Part shown: positions 19,087 through 62,789 of the stretch, piece by piece
Layout of the letters: every line of letters starts with the position of its first letter
Numbering within the stretch: the stretch's first letter is position 1
From: Vermamoeba vermiformis
Lineage: Eukaryota
Assembly: GCA_045837725.1 (NCBI GenBank)
Contig: JBEWZL010000232.1
Span: 186,001-250,000 of the forward strand
Direction of reading: 5' to 3'
Length of the DNA: 64,000 nucleotides
The notes under the pieces: generated by a model
Databases searched by the model: none
Told to the model about the DNA's origin: nothing
Seen by the model: the letters and a program-made list of their open reading frames with translations, nothing else
Translations under genes and position numbers: made by a program

Positions 19087-22000
19087 TTACAGAATATACA
19101 TAGAAATGGCAACAACAGCTGCTACAAGCAAGTCGACTGGTGTATGCATAGCTGCTGAAACCATGGAACCTTGTTGAACGGGTGCACTAACAGGAAGAGC
19201 AGAGACATAAGGGGCGATATCTGTCAATCGGAGTTTAGTCGGATATTTTTATCATGGTTCTTGAAAGCAACTTACCTCCAGTGAATTGATAAGTGAGCGG
19301 ACCAATCAAATTCCAATAATTGATTGATACATAGAACTGCACGGTCGTATTTTTCGCAGCGAGCGAGTACCACGAAGGCACGGGACAAGTGATCGTGGTG
19401 TTGTCAATCAATGTCGCGGGAGTGACGCGTTCATTGCTGTCACCGAACACGCACACCAAGCAGTCAGGGCTCGTGGTGTAAGTGGTCTCGGGGTTGCAGC
19501 CAGTGAACTGCTCGAAGCCTGAGCCTTTGACAGTGATCTTGTTGCCGCCGTCCAATGAACCGCTAGCAGGGGTGACATTGAGAGCACGGACATTGTTCGC
19601 TGTGCAGAGTGTTAGAACGAACATTAAAGTCATTGTTATCCCTTACAATAGACCCTGATAGTAGCCTGGCCCATGTAGACCACATTGTCACTCGACACCG
19701 AGATGTTGAAGGGCTGCGTTGAGTTCATTTGAGGAGTGGTGCATACAGCGAATTCACTCCACTGATTGACCACCAATCGACCTCTGTAGGGCATATCGGC
19801 GTTGATGCGACACCACACCTCATCGGTGACGGTGTTGAAACCAGAAGTGCTCCAAAACACATCGCTGCCGTTCTGTGGCACGGCTGCGGGATAAGGACCG
19901 CGCAACACATGCACTGGTCTGCCTGGGTTTGAAGTAGGGGCCTTGACTGGTCCGTGGGGAGCCCGTACAGGGGCTGTAACAGGGGAGTGGACAGGAGCTG
20001 CAACAGGAGCTCTAACGGGCGCGGAGACTGGTGCAGTGACTGGTGCACGAACAGGAGCGGCAACAGGAGGGGTGACAGGTGGAGTGGTTGGAGGAGTGAC
20101 AGGGGGAGTGACAGGGGGAGTGACAGGGGGAGTGACAGGTGCAGCGGTGGGAGTGAAGTCAGGCAGTGGTGTGGCTGGTCCTTGAGTACCACAGAACATG
20201 CCCGAGGCCAAGCCAGTAGCCGTGAGCGCTTGCACCAATGAGGCACAGTCGGATGAAGTGACAACTTGACCACTCAACGCGCCAGTCACGGGATCGCGCA
20301 GATTGACATTGTTGCTCGAGAGTTCTTGACACGCTTTGATCAAGAAGTCTGCGTGCTGCGCGAAGGTACTGGTGGGCACGTGTTTGGCGAGACCACGGAT
20401 GTAGATGTGGAAGGCTTTGACCAGTCCAACACCTGTCACTGTCCGGCCGTTCAGTGAACCGCCGTCCACGAACAGTGCGTAGTTTTGATTTGGAACGCCG
20501 GAGTTGGTGTGGACACCTCCACTGTCAATTGTGCCGCAAAACATGTAGCTGTCGTCCACTGAGGCAGGATTAAAGAAACAGTTCGGGTTGTACATGTCAC
20601 GAATTCCTGCAATGTTTGTCAATCACTGTTTGACACGTGTCATCAATTACTGCTCGTACGTACCAAGCGTTTGACCGCCAGAGTTGCGCGAAGAGAGCAC
20701 ATTAGTGACTTGATCGCCAATGATCCAGCGTCTGTTGTTATCGGGTATGTAACAGGCACGTGATGTTCTGGGTGGAAAGGCCGTGGGTAGATTCATGAAC
20801 TGTTGAATGGACTCGCCGATAATGTCAGCATAGCCCTCGTTCAATGCACCGCTTTGATATTGATACTGCAAGTTAGCCAAGCCTGAGACATACCCCTGTA
20901 AATGACACGTGTCAATCAACGGTGTCACAAAGTCACCATCCACTTACATGACCCCACTCGTGTGCCACTACGTCAATGCCATTGCCGAGACCAGGGCAGT
21001 AGTACGACGCACCATATGGCGGAATGAATGCAGCGTTAGGGCACTGCCAGCCACCCATGGCCCCGGAGAGAGTGTTGGTGTACATTTTGAACGAGGCACC
21101 GTGCAAGTCCCACGAGTCATAGCCTCCGACATTGTTCATCGCCGTGTACAGCTGACCCGACGCGGCCACGAGTGTGTCGACCTCAGCATTGCCAGTGGTG
21201 CCCTGGCCCTCGCTGTAGATCCACGTTTTGGAGCCGTAGTCGGTCACGTAGCGACTGAGCGCGTTGTGCACGCCAGAGAAGTCATCAATCACTGCACCGC
21301 TGTGTGCGTCCACGAACACGTGATGCACGTCCAAGTGTTCAATGCAGACAGTGGTCACGTGGTAAGTCACGTGATTGGTGCCTGCCTTGCCCTGCGTGAG
21401 GCCTGTGCGGTACACCACGAGCTCGATCTGACTCGCCTCGTATGTCCTAATTAGGCAAGCGATTAGATACGCGCAATCACATGGACTTGATACTCACATG
21501 TTGCTATTGAGTGAAGCACGTGCAATGTCTTTAGCCTCCTCTCGCGTGAGTGTTGGCACCACATCCAAGTGCAGATCAGGAATGATAGTGCTCGTCACTG
21601 ACAAGACTGCATTCTGTTCGTTGAAGGTCACGCGAAGTGCAGTGCCATAGACTTTCAGACCCTTGTAGACCTATGCAACCGTATCAATATTAACTCTAGC
21701 ATACCAAATTAGAAGCCACACGTACCTGATGAAAACTCAGTTGAAAGCGACCGGGGATCTGGAAGTCGTTCGTCTTGTCCATGAATACAAGCTCTTCGTC
21801 CATATTCCCCACGCCCAATTGAGGAGTTCGTTGTAGAAATTCGCGCAAAGAATCGAGCGGGTCAAGTACCGGATCTAGCGCAGCAATTATTAGTAAATGA
21901 AGAATTGTCAGTTGATTAATAGCGTACCTAGTGCTCGCTTCTGGAGCTCACTTTCATCGACGATTACCATATACGCTGTTCCTGTAGCAGGATTTATGCG

Positions 22001-26502: not shown

Positions 26503-26633
26503 CTTCAATCAGACTGTGACACTGTCGAGCTAATGACACGTGTCAAACTGTGAATAGCACGCAAATAAACGAAAAATTTACAATTTAATTTCGTTTATTA
26601 TGTACTAATAAATATATTATAGAGGTCTTTACA

Positions 26634-43837: not shown

Positions 43838-43996
43838 AGACTGTTCTCTACTGTTGTAAATTAGCTGTTTATTCATTGCGCGGCACTGTCTGTTCACCAT
43901 TTGATTGATGTCTCTCTCTCGCTGATGAGTTCTGCGCGCTCAGTGCTGACTGTCACGTGTCCGTCACGACACAACATTGCTCTGCTGCAAGTCCGC

Positions 43997-45347
43997 TTAA
44001 ATGCCGTACATGTCGCGCGTGTTGTTGCGAATGGTCTTCAACACATTGTCCAAGGTGTCACCTTTGAGCTCTGCAATCTTCTGCGCAATGAGTGGAATGT
44101 GCCCGCTGTGACTGACGCCTTTGAGTGGATGAGGGGCCATGTAGGGCGCATCAGTCTCCAACAGAATGCGGTTCAATGGTATCTGTTTCACGGCCTCGCA
44201 CACATCTGCGGCATTGTTGAATGTAATTGCGCCTGTGAAGCCAAAGTACATATTAGGAAATGCCTCGATCAATCGCTTGGCGTGCAGTGCGCTGTCAGTG
44301 AAGCAGTGCAGATGTATCTTGTGCTGCGCGGGCATGTAGTCCTTGAGAATCGTGTACGTGTCCTCTGCGGCACTGCGACTGTGCACCACGAGGGGTTTGT
44401 CGAGCTCCACCGCTTTGAGTATCTACCGCCAATCAGCAATCGAGGTATATGCGCGGTATACCGAGCTAAAAATAGCTTACCTGCGCGATGAATACTTTGC
44501 GCTGCACTTCAGGCTCACTGTGATTGTAGTGATAATCGAGTCCTGTCTCGCCCCACGCCACTGCCTTGGTGTGCTACGGTGCGTCAGTGGCACAGTTCTA
44601 TGAATACACTGCCATGCACTCACCTTCAAACACTCCACGATGCGCTCTTCAATGGAGGCTGTGTAGTACTTGGCGTTGTGCGGGTGAATGCCGAACACTG
44701 TGTGACATCTTAGTTGAGCTCTATTTGACACGTGTCAATCACTTACCGCCCCAGATGTTTTCCTCGGCAAGCAATTCTCTAAATTTAGTAATGTCAATAA
44801 ATAGGTGCAATGCAATGCTGTCAACTTACTGCCACATGCCAAGACTCGGTGACAGAGCTGCTGCGTCACTGAGAACAGATGAGTCAGAGCCACTACAACG
44901 GACCAATCACGTACCAGAACACTGAAATACAGCCCTCAAAGTTGGCTGGAAATTTCTCTGATTGACGGAGCTTGGTGAAGAGTGATTTGTTGTCTTTAAT
45001 GCGCAGCTTTTGAAATACGTATTCGAGGTGGCAATGCGTGTCTATATATAGCTCTTTTGAGCTCACTGTTGGTTCATTTGCTGTTTGAGTGCAGTTGCGG
45101 GCAATGTGACCTTCCTGCAGAATATTTTGTAATTAATTTCTTATTTTATTCGAGAATTAGTCTTTATCAGCAGGCAGACGTTTTGCGATATGTAGTGTTA
45201 TTATATTATTTTTGCCTCAATCCACACCTTGCCACACTGATAACACGTCGGTCCTTGAGATCTGGTGTTATTATTGCTTCTTGTGTTGTTGTTATTTCTG
45301 TACCCTCCTCGTGAGTTACCTCTGCTGTAGTTGTTATTGCGCGACAT
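43997..45347 (-). CDS. TatD-family nuclease (TATDN2-like) with N-terminal RG/N-rich segment and CCHC zinc knuckle
   Basis: IDTHCH, NFEGCISVF, GIHPH, GETGLDY, VVHSR, HLHCF, LLETDAPY; spliced CYQCGK|EGHIARNC. Confidence 0.88.
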
Positions 45348-45521
45348 AATTGCACCGTTGTGGTGTCGATGTTTGGTAAATAAGTGAGAATGGTCGCCAG
45401 GCGTTAATCAATCTCAGATTATCTAATCCCTGAAATTTCCAATCACGTGACGGGCAATGCGCTACGCAACAAGAATGGTACGAACTACTTTATTACAAGG
45501 ACGAGTCAGACATATTTACAC

Positions 45522-48500
45522 TTATTGTTCAAACTGTGCCATGGTACGCTCCACGCGCTCCTCTTGCTTCCTCTTGACGCGCTGTCGCCAAGCGCCGAAT
45601 TTGACGGTGAAGTCGCGCAGACTGATCTTGAGTGCTGCCGCGCACGAGGTGAGATCGTCCATCGACAGCTTGCTGCTCTTGCCTTCTAGAATTGCGCGCA
45701 GCAGACTCATGTCCGTTACAATGCGGCGCAGTTCACCTGTTGACACGTGTCAATACGAGTACTCGACAGCAATCCACGTGACTTACCTCTGAAGAATTGC
45801 GTGCCACCAATCGAGTGTGCGACAGCATAGTCACCCACGACACAAATGTTCATGATCACGTGACGACACTGCCAGGGAGGTGAGTTCAGTGAAACAGTGC
45901 CAAATAAGGCAATACTTACGAGGTAGATGTACTGCACGGCATTCGCGAGTGACTCGCAGTCGTCAATGTTAGCATCAGCTTGACGCGCAATGTGCTTCAT
46001 CTTGGACACGACTGCTTGCTTCAAGCGCACGTCCTTCACATTGCGCTCCTTCTCGTGCATCACGTACATGGAGTAGAAGCTGGCTGCGGTCAGTACACAC
46101 GCACTTGCACGGCAGTTACAGTTACGTACCTCATGTTGTTCTCGAACTGTTGCAGCAAGTTCTCGCGCTCATTCTTGCCCTTGATCTTGTACGTGCACGA
46201 GTAGTGTGAGGGGTGCCAGCCTGCGAGACAGATCCAGCAGAACTGGTACTTGCACGCACTGCAGCTCATGTGATTGCACCCACCGTTCTTCTCGATGGGA
46301 TTGCCGCACTTGGGACAGTCCTTGGTGTACGAGAGCAGCCACTGCAGTGTCTTCATCTCGCGATCAGCTTCAGGGTCGTGCTTGTCGTGTATCTGCTTGA
46401 ACCACTTGAGCTCGTTGCACGTCGAGGGCCAGTGACCTTCGCCCATGCACTGGAAGCACCACACACTGCCGCACTTGCAGAAGATCATGCCTGGCGCGGG
46501 GTGAGCACAGGTAATAAGGGCCCTAACGAGACTTACGTTCACGACCAGGCGCGAGCACGGCAAAGTTGCAGCCAGCGGCAGGACACCACTTGATGTTGGG
46601 ATTGCGCTCGACGAATGATTTGGTCACAAAGCGCACGTACTTGTTGTAGAGCTGCTCGTTGGCGAGACTGGCGAGCAACACTGGATCTATGATGTACTTG
46701 CACTTGTAGGCTGGACACGTGATGTCGTCTGAGGCACCTAATGACACGTGTCAACAACGGGTGTGTGCGATGGCAAGGTGCCAATTACCTTCGTTGATCT
46801 TGAGACTGAGATAGTTGTTGAAGCAGTCGAGACAGTAGAAGTGACGGCACTGCAGTCCGCACATGTGATCGAGCGGGTACTCCTCCAAGCAGCCAGGACA
46901 CTCCATGCTCTGCTCGTAGTACTGACTGTCCTCGCTGCCACTGCTGTCCTGCATCACTCCCACTTCGGCGAACAGCGCGGCCAAGCGACCATTCACTGCA
47001 GCCTCGCGGTAATCGGCGACGAGTTTGTCTGAGGTGAGTTAGTTCTAGTGTCAGTGTATATAGATATGCACGTACTCGAGTCCCATTGATAGTGCGTCAA
47101 CAGCACGCGCAGCACAGCTGTACTGGGCGCAGAGTACTCCGCGAGACACTCCGCGGCACGTTGCAGAGCGAGTGTGCGGTAGTTGAGAATGTCGTGCGAG
47201 TCCAGCACTGAATAGCTCGGCTTGTGCGTCAGTATGTGGCGCATGCTGTCTGCGTAGTCCTTGTTCAGCTCCTCGCGGTCATCGTTGCGACTCGTGGCTG
47301 CATCGTAGCGCACTGAGGGCGCGGTGCACAAGAACTCTTCGGCCACTGCAATCAGACGCGCAATCATCGCACTGCCACGCAAGGTGCGCGCAGTCTGCAC
47401 GAGCAGGTGTTTGAGTCGCTGCAGGGTGCTGTCGCGCAGCTGTGATTCGAGCGAGTCCGTGCGCAAGAGCAGTCGTGGCAAGCGCGCAGGATAGGCCGGC
47501 ACGAGCACGAGAATGAGCTGGAGGTGCAGGGGACGCGGGAAGAGGTGTGCATCCGCGCTGTTCTCGTCGGCTGGGTCTTGCAGTCGCGCGCTGAGCACGA
47601 ACGGCAGCGAGGTGGACTGCTTCAACTTGCCCTCGACGAAATAGCTCTGCAGACTGGCGAGCTCGTCGCGCTGTGCAGTGAGGTACTGCGTGAGGGGCGT
47701 GGCGACACTGACACTGCTCTCATCGAGCTCGGTGTCTTCAGGCACGGGTGTCATGTCATCTTCGACATTGACCTCGTGCAGACCTGCTTTCTCTTGCTTC
47801 AACCGCTCCTCTTCTTGGCGCACCTTGTCGTCAGTCACCACGAGATTGGTGCCCATCATCTTGTGTCGCAGCACGGCCAGTTCTTTCTCGCGGCGCAACA
47901 TGTGAATCAGTTGGCGCAGCTGTGGGGCACGACGCACGGCACGCACTTTGATGGGCTCGTCAGTGGTCCTGTCTGACGTGCGCACGCGGTGCATGAATGT
48001 CGCCAGTGCCGCGCTGTCGTACTCTTTGGTCGGCTCAACACGGCGCGGCAAGGGCTGCACGGGTGGTGCAGTGGTGACGAGTCGGTTGTAGTCGGGCTTG
48101 GACTTGGGCACTGCAATAGGTTCGCGCCACTCTGCTTGCAACATGCGCGCAATCTCCTCGTCCGCGAGCTCTTGATACAGCTTGTGCAGCAGATTGGGTC
48201 CTTGCTCGACTGGTCGCGAGGGCTGTTGTTGTTCAGGGGCCACGAACCAGCCGTCAATCTCCTCCATCATGTGATCGTCCCAGTCGGCGAGGTCATTCGG
48301 ATCTGTGCAGTCAATCAGTGCCGTTCATCACCGCGATATGCGTGGCACTATCGAGTACTCACCGAAGCTGCCCGTGCTGTCAATCTCGTCGTCACTCACT
48401 GCATCGCCCTCGTCCTCGTCCTCGCTCTCACTGTCGCTGGGCAGGGGTTCAATGCCCGGGACTGCAGTGCCCGCATCAGGGTCCTCGAGCAGCAGCAGAA

Positions 48501-49064
48501 TGCACTTGTCGACATCACCATTCACTTGCGCGAGCTTGAGCAAGATGAGCTCGTCACTCGCATCGGGGATCATTTCTTTCACTCGCGGCACTTTGCGCTT
48601 CAGTGCGGCACTGCTGGGCTTCTTTTTCTTCCCTTCCCTCACCTCAGCGTCGGTCTTGGCGTCAGTCGCAGCACCAGACTCATGGCCACTAGTCTGATCT
48701 GCATCTGTCGCGTGTGTAGTCGTCACTTGCGGCTCTGCGGCACGCACTGGTTCTGAGGCACGTGTCACGGGCTCGGGTGTGGGTAGTGGCACTAGTGGTT
48801 CAACAGGGGTCTCGAGTACATATTGCATGGCCACATCGAAGTTCAATTTTGATTTTTTGACGGCGTCCATGATGACTTGCAGCGAATGGTTGGGAAAGAT
48901 CTCGTTCAACTGCAAGATCTGCAACAGGGCGAAGTGAGAAATTTATAATAATTTAGAATTATCAGCGCTATATCAAGCGGAAATTCCAATAGTAATTAAT
49001 TAGAACATATATCACGTACCATTGATTCATACAGCTTTTGCTTTCTCTTTCGTTCGGCATCCAT
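45522..49064 (-). CDS. RBR E3 ubiquitin ligase: CUE-CUE-UIM-RWD-RING1-IBR-RING2-Ariadne-like
   Basis: RING2 CPKCGNPIEKNGGCNHMSC..C.YQFCWIC; IBR KWCPAAGC..CKCG..WCFQC...H; RING1 CPGC..CRHFYCLDC; RWD (ELASLQSYF..YPARLP); CUE-like LNEIFP and VKEMIP segments. Confidence 0.85.
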
Positions 49065-49392
49065 CTTGAGCCGTTAGTCTCTGCAATTCTAAAGTACGGT
49101 GTGTAAGGCTTAGTACGATAAATATTATTGCTGACTATAATCGTGCACGGTAACTAACACGATCAGTTGTGGGTGCTCAAGAAGGTAAAAAATAAATACT
49201 GGTTGTGGTGCAGTCTTGCAACCAAACACGTTCTCAACTAATTCTGCTACCACATTGAGAATAGAGCACATTTCGTATTCGTATAGTGCTAAGATGTGCA
49301 TATACGCGTATGTATCCACAAAGACCGAGAATTCTGGATGTACAACAAGCGCCAGCTTTATAATAACAAACAAGTGAAATGCACGAAACTAC

Positions 49393-50233
49393 TTAGTTCT
49401 CGCCATTGATAGCATCGAGCAAATCGCCGCTCTCAGCTAACTGTTTAACAATGTCAAATCCACCAACCAACTTGCCCTTGACGTAGAGTTGTGGATAAGT
49501 AGGCCAGTTCGAGTACTCCTTCAGTCCATTGCGCACGGACTCGTCTGAAAGAATGTTGAAGTGACCGAATTCAATGTTGCTGTCCTTGAGTATCTTGCAG
49601 AATTTGGCTGAGAAACCGCATTGAGGTGCATCCGGTGAACCCTTGATGAATGCCATGACTGGAGCTTGATTGATCAGTGCCGCCAGACGTGCGTGCAATT
49701 GTTCTTTGCTCGACTCGCTCTTCGGGGCCGGTGCTTGAGCAACACCCGTGGTGACAGCACTCTGCGCGAAGGGCGCTAACTTCTTGACAACTTCAGGGGG
49801 ATTGCTGCCCTTGACACTCTCCGTCACTTCACCTTGCTTGAGGAATAGCACGGTGGGCACTGACTCGACTTTGTACTTCTCAGTCACATCGTCTACTTCT
49901 TCGGCTTCAACCTGTGGAGGAAAAATGAATAATTATTTTTAAAATTGAGAATTGTTTGAAATTGTGTCAATATATATTCTCAATATTCATGGGTACTTTT
50001 TTAAATTAAATATTTACAAATTCTCAGTAAAGAAATAAGTTATAAATGGGATCTGCGGATCGCTTGCTTACAGTGCCAAATTTAATATTGGAATATTGAG
50101 AGGCCAATTGGCCAAGAACTGTGTTCATTTGCTTTGAAGGTTCTGACCAGGCTGCCCAAAAGCTAAGAACTGCCAAGCCTTGCCAGTCTTGAGATTTGAG
50201 TTGAGCCAAGGAGGTAACGGCGGTTACAGACAT
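49393..50233 (-). CDS. GLRX3: Monothiol glutaredoxin Grx3/4 (PICOT), Trx + Grx
   Basis: FWAAWSEPS Trx-like domain; PQCGFS; LKEYSNWPTYPQLYVKGKLVGGFDI. Confidence 0.95.
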
Positions 50234-50504
50234 TGTTATGTGTTGCTGTTATATATTAATGCAAGTAAAATGACTGGACCGACTGCGGAGGCGAGTTTGC
50301 CAAAAACTGAAAACCAGAAAGTTCGAATTGGCAGCCGGAAAATAAACAGGATGACTGACAGTACTTAATAGACGCAATTCTAACTCTCCATTGGATGTTA
50401 TACGAGAAGGGTTCGCCATACGGATGAGTTTCTTTGGTCGCGTACTGGCTTCAGACTATCAAAACAAAAAAAAATTTGTACGCACCATTACCAACAACTC
50501 ACTC

Positions 50505-51260
50505 ATGTCGCAACCACAAGACAACACTACGGGCTTGTTCAAGCATATTTCTTTAAAAGCTCCTGCCAAACCTAAGCTCTCTAATCTGCCGGTATTTCAA
50601 TTGAAGCCTTCATTGACAACCGCGAAGCAGTCCTTTTTATTGTAAGTCCTATTTACTAAGCCGTATGGTACTCATTAGCTTGTATTTTTCAGACCGAAAA
50701 TAGGATTTAATAAGGCTGCCGAGAAAGCATCGTCAGAGCCGATTATTGCGGTAGATGAGGCTCGATCGGAAGCTCCACTGGAACCCCCGAAAACCAACGA
50801 CGCTGAACCATCGAGAAAGAGATCGCTTGAGCCTCCATTTGAGCTTCCTGTCTCGAAGCGAGCCAAAATTCTTGAAGACGCCATTTTTGAGATGGATCAG
50901 GTTGAGCCATTGTCAGTCGAGAGCGTCGAGACTAGTTTCGTAAGTTAGTTCGTTTCTTTGTGGCATATTAAATATTTTAGTTGCAAGAAAAGCAAGCGAG
51001 CGATATGGAGATAGCGCAGTACCAAGACTACTTTGTTGAGAAGAATAACGAGTACGAAAAGACGTTAGACACCATCAACAAAGAGCTTGAAGACATGTCC
51101 GAGGGGCTCAAAGAGCTCGCAGGTATGTTGTTTCAACGCTAGTCTATGCCAACTAACGCGCTCATGGCTAGTTCGACTGCTTACCACCAACAACGAGTTG
51201 CTCACGTACAACAATCCAATCTTCTTCGGACTCAATCCGCACTTGGAGAAGGAAGAGTAA
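50505..51260 (+). CDS. Hypothetical protein, 4 exons, C-terminal coiled coil
   Basis: ATG at 50505; GT-AG introns join open exons ending ..NPHLEKEE* at 51260; no recognised family. Confidence 0.55.
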
Positions 51261-51280
51261 TCTGCCTCGAGTAGCCGTTC

Positions 51281-53603
51281 TTAACGGAACCAATCCCAGA
51301 TTGAACCTTTTGTTAACTTTTCTGTCTCTGGAAGAATAGAACTCGCGTGATGCTTCAAAAACTCTTGTTTCAATTCCTCTAATCGGCGCGCTCGTTCTCT
51401 TTCGCGATCGCGTTGCATTGACTCTTCAATTTGTTCCTGTGTGACTGGTCGAGACTTGAGCAGTTGATTGAAGTCTTCTTCCAACGATGAGTCCAAATCA
51501 TCAATGTGCAGAATGTTGTTGTTGTCATTGTCGAGAATGTAATTGTACGTCATCGTCTTCGGGCTCAGTGCAAAGTTTCCGCTGAACCGAGAGGACGCAC
51601 CGCGCGGTGACTCTTTGCGACCGAACATTGGCTCTTGGCTCAATCCTCGGCCCTTTGCGTACTCTTCGAGGTGATTGGTCATGAGCTGCCACGAACCGCA
51701 GCTTGCTTCGTCTGAAAGTCTATTAGTCCCGTGCTACATACGCCATCAGAGAACATTACCATCTTGTACTATGACACGTTCTTCAGAGATATCGTCAAAA
51801 TCATCCGCCAACAGATCTTCGTTCTCGTGCGAGTACGACAAGTTGATGTCGTCAATACTGCGCTGTCGCTTGTGACGTTTGGACTTGATTGTCACACCAT
51901 TCTCTGCAGGTGCAGCGGGCGCACTGTGTTGGCTGTTGAGACGCTTGCGAATGGAATGTACGGAGAAGTCCTGTGTCTTGATGTAGCCGAGGATGAAGAA
52001 GCAGAAGAAAAAGATGTCTTCTTTGCGACTCTGACGGTCCACGAGTTGATGTCTGCACGTATAATGAGTATTGCACGCACTCGTAATATCAATTATCATA
52101 CCTGAACAAGAGCCAGTCATAGCCAATAGTCAAATACAACATCTCTTTTGCAGATAATGATTTGTGGACTTCACCATCAGCCCACAGCGACAGGCGCAGC
52201 AATGAAATGAACATTGGCGTGCGGTCCCAGCCACTGATACAGTGCACTAACAGGCCACCAGAGGCACTGTCGCAAAGAATGTGCAGCATGAACAGGAGAT
52301 AGTTCTTGGTCAATGTCACGAGGTCCCACAGCTTGTAGTTCTCCCAATCAGCCATCACGAGCTTTTCAAAGCGCTCGTCTAGCCGCAGACTCGCTGGATC
52401 ACTGATTTGATGCCAATCAAAGCGCAGTTTCAACGCTGAGGTGTGTTAGTTGAGCAATATGAGAGTTAGATTTAAGTACCTGAGGCAGGGTCTTTGGCAT
52501 TGAAGTCGCGGAAGAATTCTACACCAGGGTACGGAATGGCAGACACCTTAAATGCTTCGTATCGGCCGTGACTGTCGTTCTTCTCCGAGGAACACACCGC
52601 CACGCCGTACTTCTTCTTGGCATTCTCCACCATCAGATCGCAAATGTGACTCACGCACAGTCGTTGCAACAGTTCTACGTCATACGCTCGACACCGACCC
52701 ATGGTCGATTTGTCTTCAAAATCACGTGCTTGCGTGCGCGGAGTTTTGGGAGTGATGTCCGAGACCTCACTGGGCTTGGCGGTGTAAAAGCTGTCCACGA
52801 CTGACACTGATTGGCATTGCGGTCTTTGATGGAGTTGGTCGTTGTTTGCAACATCATTTCGAGCTTCTGCGACAAGGTGGATGAACGACAGATGTTCTTG
52901 CTGCGCACATCAAATCAGCAACTACAATCACGTGCAAGAGTATTAGCGCTACTCACCCATTGAAGAGTATGACTGGCATCGGGAAGCGAGTTCTGACGCG
53001 TGAAAATCGAGCGAGCCAGAACAGTTCTTTGAGCACTGAGGCATCGTTCACACGCGCTGCAAGGGTGTTAGTTAGTGACACTGCAACAACACTCGATGAC
53101 TAGTGCGTACTGATCGCTGACAGTGTGGCGTCAGGTGAAGTGCGATCTCCGGCCAGCACGTAGAGATCGAGCGGATAAGTGCCGCAGAACTCTCCGTTGT
53201 GATTGGTGATTATATCCACGTGATAATCCTTCTTCAACAGCTCGTAACAAGTGCTGTGTATTATTTTGACCTGTACGTGCATGTTAGAATGTAATGATTA
53301 AAATTGACTCGTGCTTCTAGATTGACTTTTCGACAAAGTATCAACAGTCAAACGAGATTAATTAAAATAACGATACTGTAGTCAATATATAGTAACTCTT
53401 GTTATTTAAATAATATGGCAGTTCAAATTATTGCCAACAAGTTTTAAATTTGTAAAAATTAATCTATTTCAAGGTCTTAGACTCACCCGCTCGTCCTCGC
53501 GATTCCATTTGGTGGTAGTAAAGTCCTTATATTTACAGAAGAAATCGAGGAGGCCTTCAATTTTGCTGTCCCAATCAATTGCTTGCTTTTTGTTGATCTC
53601 CAT
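51281..53603 (-). CDS. MTMR14: Myotubularin-related protein 14 (PI3P phosphatase)
   Basis: ARFSRVRTRFP.PV, DLMVENAKKKYG..VCSSEK, PYPGVEFF, catalytic HCISGWDRT, YDWLLF.H. Confidence 0.94.
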
Positions 53604-54068
53604 CTAACTTGCAAGACAACCAACAAGCATTAATAACTAAGCAGGCCAAATATATAATATAAATAACAAATAGATAAGAGTGGATACACAGGAATCACTC
53701 GGCTGCTGTGGTTTGCGGTTGTTCGCTTTGACACAACTATTGCAACAGATCACGCAAAATATCGTCAGCCAATTCACCCATATTTAAATTTCTTGTATCT
53801 AATGTATTGTTAAGTTGGATTATGAGTTCTTTAAAGTGCCTGCGGGTTAGAAGGGTCAGAGGTATAGAGTTGGATTCATTAATGAATCTGCGTGAGTGTA
53901 TTATTTACAATCAATATTTATTGCCAAGAGCGCAATAAATACAACAATAATGTGGCATTGCTGTATTCAATAATTATTGATGATTTGGTGATATTTTCAA
54001 TTATTTTTGATTTTTAAAAATTCTGGATACCGCTTGTTTGTAACTGAATAATATCCAATAATTGTTTC

Positions 54069-54360
54069 TTATTCGCCCTCAATCTTGTTCTTGCCAAGAG
54101 CCAAGCTTGTGATACCCCAAGCCCAGAGCAAAGAGCCAGCAGCAGCGGTGCCCATCAAAGCGTAGTAGACGGTCTTATCGCGTCCAAAGAGCATGTGAAC
54201 AGGTCTCACTGGCGACAAGGGGGTGTGCAAGCTCTAATAGACAAATCTCTGTTAATACGCGACCTCAACTGCACGAGGGATCTAATATCAGAAAATCGCA
54301 TTCACGTACGTTGATGGTCTTTTGTCGCTTGAAGAAGTTTTGAATGCCAGAGTCAGCCAT
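54069..54360 (-). CDS. Cytochrome c oxidase subunit VIIa-like, 2 exons
   Basis: ~71 aa NFFKRQKTIN..PVHMLFGRDKTVYYALMGTAAAGSLLWAWGITSLALGKNK, matching the COX7a pattern (QK..., L.G..D, one TM helix). Missed by the ORF track. Confidence 0.65.
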
Positions 54361-54463
54361 GACTAGTGGTGTATATGATCAGTATTAATAATGATTGTAG
54401 GGCTGGGCTGGACAGAAAAAAAGACAGGGCAAATTTCCTCCCTGTATGTTCAACACGCGCGCA

Positions 54464-57400
54464 ATGGAAGAGCAGAAGAGCGACACTACGAACAGTTCCA
54501 ATAACAATAATAACAATGTGCAGAGTACTGTCGATGAGTTCGTGAAGAAGCAGAATGAGCTGATCGAGCTTGAAAAACAGGAAGAAGTCGAGAAGATCGA
54601 GCGTCTCCTCGACAGCTTGCCTCGCGCAGTACGTAGTAATTCAACGTTAATTATATCCTCAATATTGCGTGCATCATTGTCGCCACTTGAGAGCTAAAGT
54701 AGTTCGACTAGGAGCTGGAAAAGCGCGGCCTGGCCCTGCTAAACCACGAGATTACTGAGACCGCCACTGGTCTGTACGGACGCGTGCTGGTACGTGCATT
54801 GATGCTACTCGACCCTCGTGTACTCACCGCTGTCACGCACCCAGGTGACACTCGAACCTAAAAATAGAGCCGTGCAGCAACAGAGCGATACTAATAAGGC
54901 AACCAAATTCTCCGCGGGAGATATTGTGGGACTGCGCGCGGTGATCACTGACCCCGGCGCTGATGGACTGCCAAATATAGAGCGCGGTGTTGTGTCGCGT
55001 GTTGCTAAAAATAGAATTCAAATCGCACTGAATCAACCGCCCAATGAGACACTCTCCTCCACGTGGGACGTGGTTCAACTGACCAATCAGGTGACGTTCA
55101 AGCGCATGTCACGTGCACTCGACACCCTGGCGCAGTACACAGGCCCCGCACTGGGCACGGTGCAAGTGCTGCTCGGACAACGTGCCCCCGAAGTCAAGTC
55201 CTTGCCCGTGACTGCTGTGCCCGGACTCAATCCGCCGCAGTGCGAGGCCATTGCATTTGCCCTGGGCGAGGGACCGCTGACCCTGATCGAAGGGCCGCCC
55301 GGCACTGGCAAGACCACCACAGTCGCAGCGCTGATTGGTCAGGCCGTGCGTGCAGGACTGCGCGTGCTCGCGACAGCGCCGAGCAATGTGGCCGTCGACA
55401 ACTTGATCGAGAAGTTGGTGGCACTGCCGGGCCCGAAGATCAGCTTGGTGCGACTCGGACACCCTGCGCGACTGTTGGCGAGTGCCGTGGACTACTCACT
55501 CGATGCCGTGTATCAAGCGTCCAATGTGCGCGAGGTGTGCGAGGACGTGCGCCAAGAGATGGAGCAAGTGCGCGAGGAGATCAAGAGCAGTCGCGGCAGT
55601 GCGCGCAAGGGCAAGTGGGAGCAGTGGCGTGGTCTGCAACGCGAGCTGAAGCAGCGTCAAGTGAATGGTCTGACTGCCCTCGTGCACAGCTGTCAAGTCG
55701 TGCTCGCCACGTGCACCGGTGCCGCAGACAAGCTGTTGACACGCGTGCCAGACTTTGACTTGGTGGTGATCGACGAGGCAGGCCAGGCCCTCAAGCCGCT
55801 CAGTCTCATTCCCATGCTGCGCGGCAAGAAGACCGTGCTGGTCGGTGATCACAATCAACTGCCCCCCACCGTGATGAGCAAGCAGGCTGAGAGTCAAGGG
55901 CTGAGCGAGACATTTTTCGCGGAATTGATCAAACGACACGGCGCGCAGATCAGTCGCATGTTGGTGATTCAGTACCGCATGCACGAGAAGATTATGCAGT
56001 GGTCGTCGCGTGAGTTCTATGACCGTCGCCTCGTCGCTGGTAAGATCACGTGATTTGATTCACTGAACGCGCTTTCATGTGCTATTTTTAGATCCCAGTG
56101 TCGCGCAACGAGTCCTCGCAGATCTGCCGCTAGTGACAGCCAATGAGAACACGACAGCACCGCTGCTATTTATAGACACGAACGGCTGTGGATTGTGGGA
56201 ACTTGAAGGTCCGGACGGGGACTCGAAGGCCAATGAAGGCGAGGTGGATGTCGTGCACGAATGGGTGCAAAGACTGATCGCGAGTGGTCTGACTGCCGAT
56301 CAGATCTCTGTCATCAGTCCCTATTTGCATCACGTCAATCTCCTGCGCGGAAAATTAGCCCCGAAATATCCGAGCATGGAGATCAACACCGTGGACAGCT
56401 TTCAAGGCCGCGAGAAAGAGGCTGTCGTGATCAGCATGGTGCGGTGCAATCGCAACAAAGAGGTACGTGCATCTCGGTGCTGTCACGTGATTGGTCAGTG
56501 CTAAATATAGCTGCGGTAGGTCGGATTCTTGAAAGATTATCGTCGCCTCAACGTGGCAGTGACACGTGCGCGCAGACAGTGCACGCTGATCGGTGACAGC
56601 GAGACACTGAACAGCGATGCATTGTTGCAAAGACTGGTCAGTTATTTCAGTGAACAGGGCGAGCATTGGAGTGCGCAGGAATTCTTGCCAGACGTGCGGT
56701 TCTACAGCGCACCACCGCCTAAGAAGAACGCTAATAACAACACCAAGAAGAAGAAAAACAAGAAGAAACCCGCCGCCAAGGCACAGAACGAGAGCAAGCC
56801 GAGTGCTAATAATAGCACAGCCAACAGCACTAACAGCAATGCTAAAAATAGCAACAGTGAAGCAAAGAACACTGCCGTCAGCAACACTAGCAGTGCCAGT
56901 CACGTGCCAGAGCGTACCCAACCTGTCGCGCAAGATGTCAATGTGACACCTGTCACCGCTACGGCAGTCCCCGAAGTGACACCTGTCGCTGAAGAAATGC
57001 CCAGTGACGACGAGACGGAGGCCAGTGCTACCACGAACAGCACGGCAAACACTGCTGCAAAGAAGAAGAAAAAGAAAAAGAAGCCTGCCAACAAACCAGC
57101 GAGCACGAACACTGCCGCGAAGAAAGACAAACTGACCAATGAGAAAGAGTCCTTCGCGAACCTGACGGACGATGAAGTGCTGGAACAGGCACTCAAGTAC
57201 AAGAATGTCTGTCACTACCCGCAGTGCGACAAGAGCGTGGCAATTGTGGGCTCGGTGTGCGACCACTGCCACTTCAAGTACTGCTATGTAAGCACCTGTT
57301 CACCTGTACGCAGCACGCTAATCCCCCGCACAGACGCACTTCCACTACGAGACACACGGCTGTGGCGCGGCAGCACGCGAATCAGCGCGCAAAGAGTGGC

Positions 57401-57579
57401 TGAATCAGCAGAGCAACAAAAGCAAGCCCAAGTCCAAAGAGTGGCAGGCTGATTACGTGCGGAACAAACTGCACAAGAAGGTAAGTCGCTGTTTGACACG
57501 TGTCATGTGCTAATCGATCGCGTGACAGTTGGAAGAACAGAAAGCAGCGCGCACCAAGCAGCCCAAAGCCAAGAAATAA
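54464..57579 (+). CDS. IGHMBP2: IGHMBP2/Hcs1 Upf1-like SF1 helicase with C-terminal AN1 zinc finger
   Basis: GPPGTGKT, APSNVAVDN, IDEAGQ, GDHNQLPP, QYRMH, TVDSFQGREKE, RRLNVAVTRAR; AN1-type finger C..C....C..C...YC..H...HGC. Confidence 0.93.
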
Positions 57580-57678
57580 CACTCGCGCACTGACCTATCC
57601 ACCATTGTACATAGCTGTCCACACTACAGCACTGTAATAAACACGGCTTATTCACAACAGTTTATTAGTATTTACGTC

Positions 57679-60600
57679 TTATTTGCGCTTGGTCATGCGC
57701 TTCGTCTTGGCCTTGGTGAGCGGATCATTCACCCGCGCTGCAGCACGACGCAGCTTGGCAGGGGTCTCGCTGACCACGGCCTCCGCGCCCTCGTCTTTCT
57801 TGCTCGCTTTGCGCTTGGACAACTTTTGAATGTTGTACTGGGGCTTGGGTGTCTGCTGCAGACGACTCGAGCGACGAATTGTTCCGCCCAAGGACTCACG
57901 TGTGCGCGGCTCTTCGTCGCTGTGCTCGTCGTGCGATGCGAGTGACTGATTGACACTTTGATTGACACTGTCACTCTTGTCCTCGCGACTGACCAGCGAC
58001 TGATTGACACTTTGATTGACACTTGTCTCTTCGGCACTCTCGTCGTCTGGTGGCACGCTGGCACTTTGTTCTTCGCGCGAGTGGTGCGGACTGGACCTGT
58101 CTTTGCTGACACGTGACTGACTGGCACTCGGCTCCTCGCCCTGATCGACATTCATGTTCACGTGCTCGTTCTCAGGCACGTGCTCTTCAGTGACAGCAGG
58201 GCCGGTGAATTGTTCCACAAAGTCGAAGGTCGAAGTGACAGGCGGAATATCTTCCATGTCACTGATTGGCACCTCGGAGATGTGTTCCGTGTCAGGGACG
58301 TTATGTGACTCGGTGTCCTGCACCACACTGGTGGCACGTGGCACGTAGTTGTCAATCCACGCTTCATTCTCATCAAAGTGCTGTTCATCGTGATCGATCT
58401 CATCGGCTTCGACCACGTGCTCGGACAGGTCGTGTTTTGACACTTTGCTTGACACGTCCTCGTCACTGGACAGCTCTTCGATTGGCGCGTCATTGATCAC
58501 GTGATCACTCTCTTCGCTCAACACCTCGTCTGACACGTGATCTGACACGTGATCTTCTTGCATGTCCACGTCATTGCTGTCACTCTGCTCACTTGATTCA
58601 CTGAACAGCGATGATTCACTGCTCAGCTTCGCGTTGTTATTTTTAGTTACAGGTGTCACGTGCTCGCTTTCGTCCTCTGAATCGAGATCTACGACCACTG
58701 TTGCAGGTGCTGGTTTGACATCTTCCATGCGACGCAGTGTCTGTTGCAGTGTCGTGCTCGCTTGTTGCAGCGGAGATTGTGGTGGAGATTGCGGACGCAC
58801 TGATTAGGCAATTAGGAGCGGAATAACGGTGGCGGAATATTTACCTTGTTTAAACGGAGTTCTTTGCTTCAATTCGCTGTCACGTGGTGACTCCTCGGCA
58901 TTTTTGATACCATAATTGGAAGTGACAGGTGTCACGGGGGTGTCAGCAGGTGCAGTCAACAGACCAATCAGGGACTGACGACGCGAGGGACCACCGAGTG
59001 ACATGCGCGAGGATTTGACACCTGTCAATGACATGCGCGGACCACCTGTCAATCGCACTGCTGTCGGAGCTAACAGCGCGAGTGACTTGCGCGGTCTGAT
59101 GGGGCTGTTCACTGAACCAGCGGTCACGTGACTGACGTGACTCGGTCGCTTGAAAGTTGAAGGCGAGGCAGTGACGCTGTCGCTCGGCGTGTTGAACAGT
59201 CGCGGCACGTGACGTTTGACAGCTGATTTGGGTGTCTCGGGCAGGGTTGCTGGCACTTTGACAGGTGCCACGGTGACAGCTGTCAATGCGCGTCGTTGAA
59301 CAGCAGGCAATGTGAGGAGATAGTTCTCGACCAGGGCACTCTGATTGGGATCAGTCACGTGCTTCTTCAGCAGCTCGTGGTGGCACTGCACGGCGTCACT
59401 GACACGACCGCGCTGCAAGTAATACACGAGCAAGAACTGCGCATCACGTGGCTGCGGTGATCGTTGCAAGAATTCTACGAGATACTTGTCCTCGAGGGTG
59501 TCAAGTGGCAGTTCGAAGAGCACATCGAGCTTGTTGTGCGCGTGACAGTATTGGTACAGGTGGTACAGCAGTGTCTCCAACAGCACGGGATCGTACGACC
59601 CTTCGCGTGTGGTGCGACTGATGGCACGCTGATGGACCGGTCAGTGCCATTACCATATTAGGACATGAGTACTTACCACGGCATTGAATGCTTGGTGCAG
59701 CAGATTGTTGTAGAGCAGCACGTCAATGTAGGTGATGACGTCATCAGTGCCCGTGATCTGATCACGTGACTGGTGACCAATCAGCAAGTGCGACTGCAAG
59801 TAGTTGTTCGCAGTGATCACGCGCAGTGCCAGTGCGTACTGCTCGTAGTCGTGCAGCGTCTTCACGATCAGGCGCGTCCACTGCTCCAGCTCGATTTTAG
59901 CGCCGTGCCGCGTGCCACCTGTCAGCAGCGCGACTGCTTCAGTGAACTGATGCGTGTCAAGCAGCCACAGCGCGCGAGTGAGCAGTTGATAGTCCTGATC
60001 GATCATGAAGCTCTGCGCGCAGTCCTCGATCAGGGCCGGACTGAGCTGCAAGTCGTGCAGCAAGTAGAGCAGCACACAGCGCTTCTTCACGATCAGATCT
60101 GCGTGCGTGCGTTGAAACACGTCGACCAGGGCTGACAGACTGCTCGGGGGATAGCTGCTCACGTGATCGGACTCCAGCGAGGATGTCGCGGTCATCGACT
60201 CCCACAGCAGATCTATAAATAGCTTCGTGCCATCACCGTGATCGGTCTGTTGTTCCGTTGACAGATTGACACGTGTCATGTTTTTAATTGTCCAAAAATG
60301 GCGATAATGTCGTTGCTGTCTATCTTTGCGGCGCTGTTTGATCTGCCCATCGAGATTGACCAATGAGGTGCGCACTGACGGATCTACCAGGGCATGTGAC
60401 ACGCACCACAGCACAATCTCGAGAGTCTGGCTGGTCGAGAACATGTCACGTGACTTGTCGTTCAGCAGCTCCATGTGTTCGGCACTGATGTCGCGGCGCG
60501 AGGCGAGTGATTGCAAGAGTGCCAGCAGATCTATAATTAGCACAAACCAGCGCGACATGTCTTCGTGCTGTCGCTCGTGTGACTTGTCATCGGTGTGCAG

Positions 60601-62557
60601 CGGTGTCTTGAGTGCAGTGACAGCTGTCAACGTGTCAATCAACGCCACGTGCTCGGTGACAGTACTTACTGGTCTGTTCGATGCGCGCGACTAATTTGGC
60701 ATAAGCACGTGACAGCCAATCAAAGATGATCTTCGTGTTGGTCAGTGTGTACTCGTGATCCATGCTGCGGTGTGTGATGTCTAAATATGGCATGGTCAGT
60801 CACGCATGTACTAATAAGGCAATATCGATCGCCGTACAGTCCGCGAGCACCGCGAGGAGATTGTGTTCGAGCAACATGTCCCAGTAGTTCATCAGCCGCG
60901 TCACTTCGTCCTCACTGCGCGCACACAGGCCCTGGTCGCACGCCCACGTGTAGAATTGACCAAAATTGGTAAGTCCGCCTGCTCCGCGCTGCGCTATTTT
61001 TGTCAACAATTGTTCCGCGTGCGACTGATAGCTCAAAATGGACACCGCGCGTGGAGTGAGCACGTGGAGTGCACAGCTGAGTGCCACACCGTGCGAGTCA
61101 GGCACGTGATCGAGTGTCACGTGACGACGGAATTCACGCACTGTCATTGGATTGACCCAACATGCCTAAATATGGGAATTAGATGACACGTGTCACACCG
61201 CACTCGACTCACCAATCCCGACAGCTGATCACGTGACTGAGGTGCATCTATTTTTAGCGGATAGCTCTTGAACAGTGCGGGCTGTGCGAGGCCAGTGGAC
61301 TGCCAGTCAAACAGCTCCACGTGACGCGTGATCTGCCACTCAAAGTCGCGCAGGGGCAGTGTCTCCCACACGAACATCACTTGGGGCCGATCACTGCCCT
61401 GGTCGAGGGTCTGCATGCCAATCACGTGACTGTACTTGTTGTTGCTGCCCACGAGCACGCGCTGAAATTCACACTCGAGTCTGGTGTCCTGATCACGTGA
61501 CAGGTGATACAGTGCAATGTTGCTGGAGGACTCGTGATGACATGTTGACGTGTGACAGCTGCCACGTGTCACCCAGAGCCACTCTTCCGTGCCAAGGCGT
61601 TGCACAGCGAGTGCGGTGACTGGTGGCTTGGTGTACTGATCGGTGGTGGTCGCGGACTTGATTTGTTCTGTGAACGGCTGGTTAGTGCCACGTGTCACGC
61701 TAGAGTGCTACAAATAGTACCGTGCAGATCCGAGGCGAGTTGACACGTGAACTGCGTGAGGGACCAGAGCTGCACGCAGCCAAAGCTGAAGCCGACGAGC
61801 ACGCCGTGCTGACTCTCTACCAGGGCTGTGACTGACACACTGCTGCGCTTCAACAGCGTCACTTGATCACGTGAGGTCGGGTACTGCACGTGCTCGCCAG
61901 TCACTGCACTTGCATTCACCACCAGCACGGGCAGGGTGTTGGGTGGCACGGTGCCATCGTACTCGACTGCAGTCACGTGATGGACTTGCATGCGCGCGTG
62001 AGGCACGTGTCGGGCGAGATCAGTGAGCAGCACGTGACCGCCCAATGTACCGAGCAGCAGCGGCAGTGTGAAGTGTGGTGGCACTGTGCCACGCAGCACG
62101 AGGAGCGCGGTGATCACGTGATTGAACTGCACCTGCGTCACCACACTGCCCGTGCGCACATCGATCAGGTACAGTGTGCTGTGTGTGTGCGAGTCTGGCA
62201 CGCGCGCACTAACGAGCAAGTATTTGCGGTGCTGGATGTGCACTTCAGCGGTGGTGTTGATCTCCTGTTGTGCGAGGTGAGGACTAGAGCTGTGGGATTT
62301 TTAATAATTACCATTAATTCATCGTCATCATTCTTGAACGATATTAAGTGTGTTCGCTTGAATATAGACAGATTGAAAATTTGTAGATAATTTTTGGAGC
62401 AAATCCAGGCAATGGTGCCGTCCTGCGCGAATGAGCCACGCAATAACTCCTGTCCCCTCTGCTGCTTATTATTGACTACGGAGGCATCGAATCCAATTGC
62501 TGGATAGAGCTCATGGTGCGCTATGCTCGGTGTTGCAAAAGAAGATCCGATCTGCAT
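57679..62557 (-). CDS. AHCTF1: Nucleoporin ELYS/MEL-28 (beta-propeller + helical ELYS domain + disordered basic tail)
   Basis: YPPSSLSAL, VLLYLLHDL, LTRALWLLD, LFELPLDTLEDKYLVEFL, FLLVYYLQRGR; N-terminal propeller (LVGFSFGCVQLW); tail RRSSRL. Confidence 0.85.
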
Positions 62558-62789
62558 TGATTGATAGTGTAATTTAACGCTGCTATCTACAACATGCAGT
62601 TATATAGGTAATATAAATATATACACTAGTGCTCAATCATACAACTGAGCAACACTAAATCAACAACAAAGAAAAAGGCGCGACTTTTTTTCGCGTGTGT
62701 CAGATCTGAGAATCGATCAACCACAGTGACGTCATCGAGTCAATGGGGCTATATACAGTCGCATTTATTCTATGTACATCCGTATCGCA

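Follow-up and report, generated by a model that had tools for sequence, protein, structure and literature searches.

The stretch of DNA analysed here, a 64,000-nt window of the Vermamoeba vermiformis genome (assembly GCA_045837725.1, contig JBEWZL010000232.1, positions 186,001 to 250,000 of the forward strand; positions below are counted from its first base), carries on its minus strand an ELYS gene (coding region 57682..62558) whose body is loaded with exact copies of the palindromic hexamer CACGTG. The gene is recognized by its ELYS domain (59653-60690, minus strand; Pfam PF13934, 2.1e-24), and its minus-strand exons were assigned to 62312-62558, 61721-62264, 61213-61667, 60812-61165, 59677-60623, 58845-59628 and 57682-58799, with the segment 60670-60811 left out of the exon assignment. 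The introns 58800-58844 and 59629-59676 are RNA joints, and the remaining ELYS introns were predicted by searching for GT..AG pairs that join the frames and from the positions at which RNA contigs end. ELYS lies in a region (43900-62250) in which an initial annotation had described gene bodies generally loaded with consensus sites of several unrelated transcription factor (TF) families. That region also includes a TatD gene (Pfam PF01026, 1.5e-39), a gene labelled in the annotation as an RBR ligase, in which Pfam finds an RWD domain, and, on the plus strand, IGHMBP2/SMUBP-2 (gene body 54848..57525), recognized from the long exon 54803-56053, whose top database match is merely 45% identical. 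A thermolysin-type peptidase gene (M4) lies at 19.6-21.7 kb. The window as a whole is a mosaic of 33-60% GC with short GT..AG introns, mostly of 45-60 nt, 14 of which, all on the minus strand, are confirmed by RNA-derived contigs and reads. The ELYS sequence itself is present at ~99% identity in contigs of three independent runs (X5, X6 and X7), thus an assembly artefact is excluded for this gene.

The island within ELYS spans 57897..62120 (minus strand) and contains 39 exact copies of CACGTG, which we take to be the core of the E-box consensus of bHLH-zip proteins (USF/TFE/Cbf1 type), together with about 60 copies of TGACA/TGTCA. The 39 E-boxes, of which 35 fall in assigned exons, three in predicted introns and one in the segment 60670-60811, occur once per ~115 bases in exons and introns alike. 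They represent nearly half of the window's E-boxes (39 of 82), and the 4,583-nt ELYS body has a density of 8.5 per kb against 0.72 per kb elsewhere and 2.0 per kb in the 13 remaining 1-kb bins whose GC is >=0.5, a concentration with a Poisson probability of 4e-28. Two codon-level nulls of 500 shuffles each were applied to the ELYS exons (4,437 nt), one exchanging synonymous codons while keeping the protein and the other shuffling whole codons. Exonic E-boxes number 35 against 16.3+-2.4 in the synonymous and 4.8+-2.1 in the codon shuffle, TGACA|TGTCA 52 against 22 and 15, and TCACGTGA 12 against 2.1 and 0.2, and in each case none of the 500 shuffles (0/500) reaches the observed count; the three exonic CTA(W)4TAG words, with 0.0 expected, are not reached by any shuffle either. 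An unbiased ranking of 6- and 7-mers over the synonymous shuffle returns the same vocabulary at its top, namely CACGTGA (38 against 11.3), TGTCAA, GTGTCA, GTGCCA, GATCAC and ATTGACA. As had been pointed out in the initial annotation, the words stop at the AT-rich start of the gene: its AT-richer 5' part (exon 1 and intron 1; 62265..62600, minus strand) has no E-box and no TGNCA, and the count of both in the first 100 codons is zero.

The force behind this excess acts on double-stranded DNA, not on protein or RNA, as evidenced by the codon phases, the codon choice within particular peptides, the strand symmetry, the palindromic flanks and the loaded introns. The exonic E-boxes of ELYS occupy all three codon phases (21/12/2) and at least 9 of the 26 introns examined contain an E-box, with a tenth (56047) falling in an IGHMBP2 intron after correction of the start, in agreement with the earlier statement that the words lie in different phases and in introns. 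The dipeptide histidine-valine (HV) occurs 22 times in ELYS against 6.0 expected, and VH only twice; 21 of the 22 HV are encoded by CACGTG. In addition, xCA-CGT-Gxx encodes 12 of the 19 tripeptides of the form [STPA]R[VADEG], where 1.75 would be expected (p about 1e-8), and SRD occurs five times against 0.56. Thus, codon choice and amino-acid order in ELYS are both bent toward the word. Protein-level selection for HV is ruled out by the codon choice within HV, by the other two phases and by the introns. Moreover, sense and antisense counts over five genes match for 13 of 14 non-palindromic words (TGACA 53/58, GTGAC 49/57 and CCAAT 16/18, for example), the sole asymmetric word being GTGACAG (6/19, p=0.01, uncorrected). 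The E-box flanks in ELYS are themselves palindromic, (G/A)TCACGTGA(C/T), with T at -1 in 50% of half-sites and G/A at -2 in 86%; these values come from a symmetrised flank matrix, with which the sense-strand counts of TCACG (31) and CGTGA (25) agree.

The claim of a word excess across 43900-62250 (18,351 nt) holds when counts are compared with the means of 200 Markov simulations per order, and in ELYS and IGHMBP2 it survives the codon-preserving nulls as well. CACGTG is found 59 times in this region against 10.8, 12.3 and 32 expected at orders 1, 2 and 3, and ELYS supplies 39 of the 59. At order 4 the expectation rises to 53 and the bare hexamer is absorbed. The longer words are far above all Markov orders tested: TGACANNTGTCA has 11 copies against 0.1-0.2 at every order up to 4 (17 in the window), CTAWWWWTAG, or CTA(W)4TAG, 13 against 0.1-0.4, TGATTGACA 6 against 0.3-1.5, and CACGTGAC 26 against 1.6-12 (1.6, 1.9 and 5.8 at orders 1, 2 and 3, respectively), while CCW6GG and CCAATCA reach 5 against 0.2-0.6 and 18 against 2.5-8.3. 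At least 3 of the 13 regional CTA(W)4TAG copies lie in predicted introns, two of them at a 3' splice site. The word CCAATCACGTGAC is present at 45439 and 61418, and its reverse complement at 21366 and 56482; TGACAGCTGTCA occurs twice in the window and TGATTGACAG exactly once, at 43213. The cAMP response element (CRE), which had been listed among the enriched words, does not belong there: TGACGTCA has one regional copy against 0.3-0.8 and three in the whole window, and the single palindromic CRE-like word GATGACGTCATC (59734..59745, no strand assigned) is present without its class being enriched.

One may argue that composition, codon usage, amino-acid content or local duplication could produce such counts artificially, and it is true that the order-4 model absorbs the bare hexamer, that a few sites derive from 12-nt tandem duplications and that the TGACA peak of M4 is partly a linker repeat. 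This explanation is nevertheless hardly credible, since the longer words exceed every Markov order, synonymous and codon shuffles fail to reproduce the counts, the same ELYS sequence is carried by contigs of the runs X5, X6 and X7, and the repeats have only motif cores in common. The initial annotation's view that base composition or codon bias is an unlikely cause is therefore borne out by both kinds of null. Tandem repetition was also rejected as a cause because only three 12-nt duplications (57947-57969, 58001-58024 and 58529-58555, minus strand), which copy TGATTGACAC or TGACACGTGA, touch motifs, and they add few sites; the internal repeats of ELYS are composites of 14-24 nt made of motif cores only.

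Several other generic causes were considered. CACGTG accounts for 39 of the 111 six-base palindromes in ELYS, and the palindromes of 6, 8, 10 and 12 nt (111, 41, 14 and 6 against 115, 35, 9.4 and 3.3 at order 3) show no class-wide excess. A generic correction of palindromes or quasi-palindromes is thus rejected, since only words centred on CACGTG or CAGCTG are in excess. The nine single-mismatch neighbours of the E-box hexamer occur about as often as expected, with slight deficits of AACGTG (0 against 1.6) and CACGTC (6 against 9.2) and an excess of CACCTG (11 against 5.9); as they are not depleted, a clear signature of an absorbing state is lacking. The 36 pair distances between E-boxes give no sign of helical or nucleosomal spacing (Rayleigh p 0.25-0.76), and the distance histogram is flat to 300 nt. 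Protection from methylation decay in the manner of a CpG island is unlikely, as CG counts equal or exceed expectation (by our own arithmetic) in AT-rich bins too. A tract of GC-biased gene conversion (gBGC) was rejected because exons of the RBR-ligase gene that are rich in GC at third codon positions (GC3) have no E-box excess and the AT-rich CTA(W)4TAG is enriched.

The load differs strongly from gene to gene and is not a general property of gene bodies, and here the initial annotation was too broad: two-thirds of the regional E-boxes belong to ELYS, and the RBR exons, whose GC3 of 0.72-0.75 is the highest in the window, are unloaded, with one E-box against 0.4 (synonymous) and 1.2 (codon) and no other enriched word. 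Among the genes it listed, ELYS is strongly and IGHMBP2 moderately loaded. In the latter, exonic E-boxes number 5 against 1.4 and exonic CTA(W)4TAG 5 against 0.1 in the shuffle nulls, and the gene body as a whole has seven CTA(W)4TAG (54858, 55005, 56082, 56166, 56501, 56806 and 56842) and eight E-boxes. In M4, the TGACA count is inflated locally by a tandem GGAGTGACAGG-type repeat in a Pro/Thr/Val-rich linker (20085-20145). Seven other long exons have a mild excess of TGACA alone (41 against 25). E-box islands in the window measure 0.4-4.3 kb. This genome or a related one seems to have further loaded loci, since the contigs from X5 and X6 share a match of only 34 nt with the window at a double E-box composite (61087-61120) and then run into different sequence, which is itself rich in CACGTGAC and TGACAGGTG.

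Short introns are loaded with a word of their own. The palindromic 12-mer TGACACGTGTCA has nine copies in the window (20631, 20903, 26534, 44726, 45741, 46742, 57494, 60267 and 61184) against 0.03 expected at order 3, and seven of the nine lie in short introns: two in M4, one in TatD, two in RBR (both introns RNA-confirmed), one in IGHMBP2 and one in ELYS. The copy at 60267 is exonic, and that at 26534 was not placed in either an exon or an intron. Intronic copies either adjoin the 3' splice site or sit 9-17 nt past the 5' splice site. In the RBR intron 45737..45786 (minus strand), GTCACGTGG starts at intron base +5 and TTGACACGTGTCA adjoins the 3' splice site, and the RBR intron 46738..46788 (minus strand) ends in ...TTGACACGTGTCATTAG. 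In the predicted TatD intron (44700..44746, minus strand), the 12-mer lies 9 nt past the 5' splice site, with a joint from the RNA run X22 in the area. The predicted 3' intron of IGHMBP2 (57476..57525, plus strand) reads GTAAGT..TGACACGTGTCA..CTAAT..CAG and the predicted ELYS intron 61166..61212 (minus strand) GTGAGT..TGACACGTGTCA..CTAAT..TTTAG, and two predicted M4 introns (within 20609..20947, minus strand) have a copy each (20631 and 20903). These are not copies of an introner or other dispersed repeat, as the nine loci share nothing beyond the 12-14 nt word.

Such placement raises the possibility that the words are RNA-level signals, that is, splicing enhancers, branch-point mimics or structure in the transcript. 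Besides the share of 12-mers that is intronic, this explanation can draw on three introns in which the TTGAC half of TGACACGTGTCA is the sole plausible candidate for the branch point, matching YTRAY at a suitable distance from the 3' splice site, and on the two IGHMBP2 introns in which CTA(W)4TAG coincides with the 3' splice site. However, in four introns a separate CTAAT, CTAAG or TTGAC lies downstream of the 12-mer, before the 3' splice site, a role as branch point is out of the question for copies in exons, and the strand symmetry of 13 of the 14 non-palindromic words speaks against any signal read in the transcript. RNA structure in particular is ruled out as the cause by ordinary folding z-scores (mean -0.32 over 30 ELYS windows of 150 nt, against 0.08 to 0.52 in four other genes) and by zero matches to Rfam. 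Taken together, an RNA-level origin is very unlikely.

Comparison with relatives reveals that some sites are retained and others are created in the lineage of the window. A metagenome scan returned a single contig, L001 (2,817 nt), which holds an orthologue of IGHMBP2 with 77% identity overall and 80% over 2,067 aligned exonic nt. Exonic sites are kept in this orthologue in 3 of 4 cases for the E-box, 2 of 3 for CTA(W)4TAG and 5 of 7 for TGACA, where the baselines for all k-mers of the same length are 0.32, 0.19 and 0.39, respectively. Amino acids differ at 3 of 59 motif-overlapping codons and at 95 of 615 others. L001 also has TGACA sites that the window lacks, five being found in L001 only and two in the window only. 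In the aligned IGHMBP2 exons (54401-56800), GATC occurs 18 times in the window and 7 times in L001, with 12 copies specific to the former and one to the latter. The window copy of the gene is also GC-richer (194 against 121 strong/weak (S/W) sites, unpolarised). A separate stretch of the helicase core (55780-55880) has only ~5 differences from L001 in 100 nt, synonymous sites included; it has none of the listed motifs, and equally conserved protein stretches nearby are free at third positions.

For exons 2 and 3 of ELYS, six related protein sequences of 98-55% identity were available, all as proteins and without their DNA. Five of the 12 exonic E-boxes in these exons are compatible with the residues of every covering relative, two are compatible wherever the proteins can be aligned, and two are common to some relatives only. 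The remaining three require residues found only in the window, at 61887 (HM, HM and HL in the relatives), 61563 (V and I) and 61318 (HL and HL). The most distant relative, in turn, shows HV at two places where the window reads NT and YP. Judged from these alignments, the ELYS pattern looks like a continuing directional pressure with turnover of sites, and in the lineage of the window new sites became fixed although they altered the protein.

Conceivably, DNA machinery other than TFs targets the words, for example a modification or restriction-like system or the proteins of meiotic breaks or chromosome pairing, and the islands would mark loci for it. The exact specificity for one palindromic hexamer, whose variants are not enriched, would suit such a system, and so would the excess of GATC, which exceeds the synonymous shuffle in ELYS (42 against 27.9) and IGHMBP2 (17 against 11.3) and distinguishes the window from L001 in the alignment described above. 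Furthermore, the enriched CCAATCA is, according to the accessible parts of two studies, a meiotic-hotspot motif of fission yeast that is active inside coding sequence (PMC6827382, PMC3534124). We consider this origin improbable: the extended words closely match the consensus sites of TF dimers, and several unrelated word classes, including the AT-rich CTA(W)4TAG, would need several systems.

The shapes of the words lead us to another explanation. They are exact palindromes or palindromes with short spacers, have symmetric flanks and form composites such as TGACAGCTGTCA and TGATTGACA, features that fit candidate dimer sites of bHLH-zip, TALE-homeodomain and MADS proteins. CTA(W)4TAG, for instance, is presumably the MEF2-type consensus of MADS-box proteins. 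TGACAGCTGTCA and TGATTGACAG are the seeds given for dimeric Hth and Hth-Exd sites in the part of the source accessible to us (10.1101/706473), and GTCACGTGAC is named as the TFEB CLEAR word, again in partly accessible text. We tentatively propose, from sequence comparison, that ELYS carries a dense heterotypic cluster of candidate sites for dimeric proteins, held and extended by selection on the number of sites. Its main words would be CACGTG with TCACGTGA or GTCACGTGAC flanks, TGACA(SS)TGTCA, TTGACA, CTA(W)4TAG and TGGCA, and weaker versions would be carried by IGHMBP2 and by short introns in TatD, RBR and M4. We infer that the words are bound by proteins, most likely dimers of bHLH-zip, TALE-homeodomain and MADS types that read them on double-stranded DNA, and that selection on site number maintains the cluster. 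Positions could then turn over as in homotypic enhancer clusters, and sites would be placed in introns where this is cheap and, where large numbers are required, in ELYS codons under weak constraint, so that the ELYS gene body might serve as an intragenic platform for binding or titration. As for the earlier proposal of protein-binding-driven sequence evolution, the sequence supports a DNA-level force, dimer-like word shapes and a cost to the protein, and the general loading of gene bodies is the part that fell; it is fair to speak of sequence evolution that is driven by a reader of these words. The feature is real and strongly unusual, and it is narrower than first described.

The same observations can be read as the outcome of a non-adaptive fixation bias, an idea already raised in the initial annotation and in our judgement a somewhat unlikely explanation, in which binding-site alleles are preferentially transmitted or repaired in transcribed DNA. 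The bias could arise from heteroduplex conversion or from shielding against a gene-body mutational process, and a strength that varies locally, for example with recombination, would generate islands. A bias of this kind toward the sites of several abundant dimeric proteins, overruling weak protein constraint and altering HV and SRD with no organismal benefit, would be the reverse of the recombination-hotspot paradox; we hold this version, too, to be rather doubtful. It would explain why words of several unrelated families rise together, why introns and exons are both loaded, why amino-acid changes create sites where relatives agree on another residue, and why there is a weak tendency throughout the window to code HV as CACGTG. 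The near absence of E-boxes from intergenic DNA, the free first 100 codons of ELYS and the higher GC of the window's IGHMBP2 are also in its favour, and the island sizes resemble those of recombination hotspots. On the other hand, the RBR exons combine the window's maximum of GC3 with no E-box excess, the single-mismatch neighbours are not depleted, and motifs that start recombination are expected by classical hotspot theory to erode and be lost, not to accumulate.

Selection on site density is slightly favoured over this bias, because the gene specificity, the cheap placement of sites in introns and at weakly constrained residues, and the partial conservation of positions all fit selection on site number. 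Several points weigh against it. Nearly all of the 82 E-boxes are intragenic and almost none lie in AT-rich intergenic or promoter DNA, which would be odd for ordinary activator sites. The specificity is razor-sharp, for one exact hexamer without weaker variants, and TF site clusters usually contain such variants. In the other open reading frames (ORFs), HV is coded CACGTG in 15 of 24 cases against 0.34 expected (p=0.0035), and this weak window-wide preference fits a genome-wide bias better than a function of the locus. Synonymous identity to L001 is 33/45 within motifs and 317/531 outside (p=0.08), only suggestive of constraint, and relatives whose ELYS protein is compatible with a site need not have an E-box in their DNA. 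Finally, there is no evident reason for ELYS in particular to need ~39 E-boxes.

ELYS differs from each known kind of system in density, exactness, cost to the protein or gene specificity, and no account of CACGTG-loaded coding genes or of intronic TGACACGTGTCA was found in the literature searched, with subscription journals and supplements outside its scope. TF sites inside coding exons, known as duons, are described as scattered single sites. Like the non-translational pressures on codon choice treated in a review (PMC8410138, in its accessible part), they resemble the present case in that a second, DNA-level code biases synonymous choice. In contrast, ELYS has ~39 copies of one hexamer in 4.6 kb, loaded introns and altered amino acids (HV and SRD). 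Homotypic enhancer clusters with turnover similarly contain many copies within a few kb, some conserved and others gained independently in separate lineages, but they occupy non-coding DNA and the ELYS cluster lies in a coding gene body. Regional gBGC, such as that acting on the half of mouse Fxy in the pseudoautosomal region, shares with ELYS a sharp intragenic boundary, an effect on exons and introns, and driven amino-acid changes; it raises GC regardless of words, whereas here specific words are raised, some of them AT-rich, and RBR is unloaded. Very-short-patch repair of bacteria is likewise a sequence-specific bias that over-represents one palindrome, but it depletes single-mismatch neighbours, which are at expectation here, and it is not gene-specific. 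Introner elements are comparable in that short introns share an element; here only a word of 12-14 nt is shared, at varying positions. In the fission-yeast hotspots, so far as the accessible text goes, TF-bound words including CCAATCA act inside coding sequence and several unrelated TF families have one downstream effect in common, and the motifs named there do not include the CACGTG and TGACA words (PMC6827382, PMC3534124).

If the sites are bound and selected, ELYS would be an extreme case of overlapping codes, in which a housekeeping coding gene doubles as a binding platform and pays for it in amino-acid changes, and it would provide a clean system to measure how far protein sequence can be traded for DNA-level function. 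If fixation bias is true, the sequence read by DNA-binding proteins would be moulded by those same proteins, a new kind of molecular drive, and this would affect how conserved or enriched exonic motifs are interpreted everywhere. The locus is directly testable, since the words are exact, numerous and synonymously recodable.

Some further features of the region were observed. The RNA run X22, compared over 43900-49000, shares its species label with the source DNA runs, but the majority of its reads diverge from the window by 5-10%; this species label seems to include more than one lineage. Run sequences differ from the window at 816 places, and the 40 that are listed are all in TatD. A 253-nt minus-strand intron confirmed by RNA (50932-51184) holds a plus-strand ORF (50981-51139) with coding-like codon usage, accompanied by a predicted plus-strand intron (51123-51171), and this ORF could represent a gene that overlaps another or is nested in it. 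The genes that separate the RBR ligase from IGHMBP2 (49900-54300), among them a glutaredoxin-like one, are AT-richer and have few of the words; their introns are long and AT-rich (160-253 nt, GC 0.26-0.43), and the depth of the RNA contig runs is higher. Loaded and unloaded genes thus alternate inside 10 kb.

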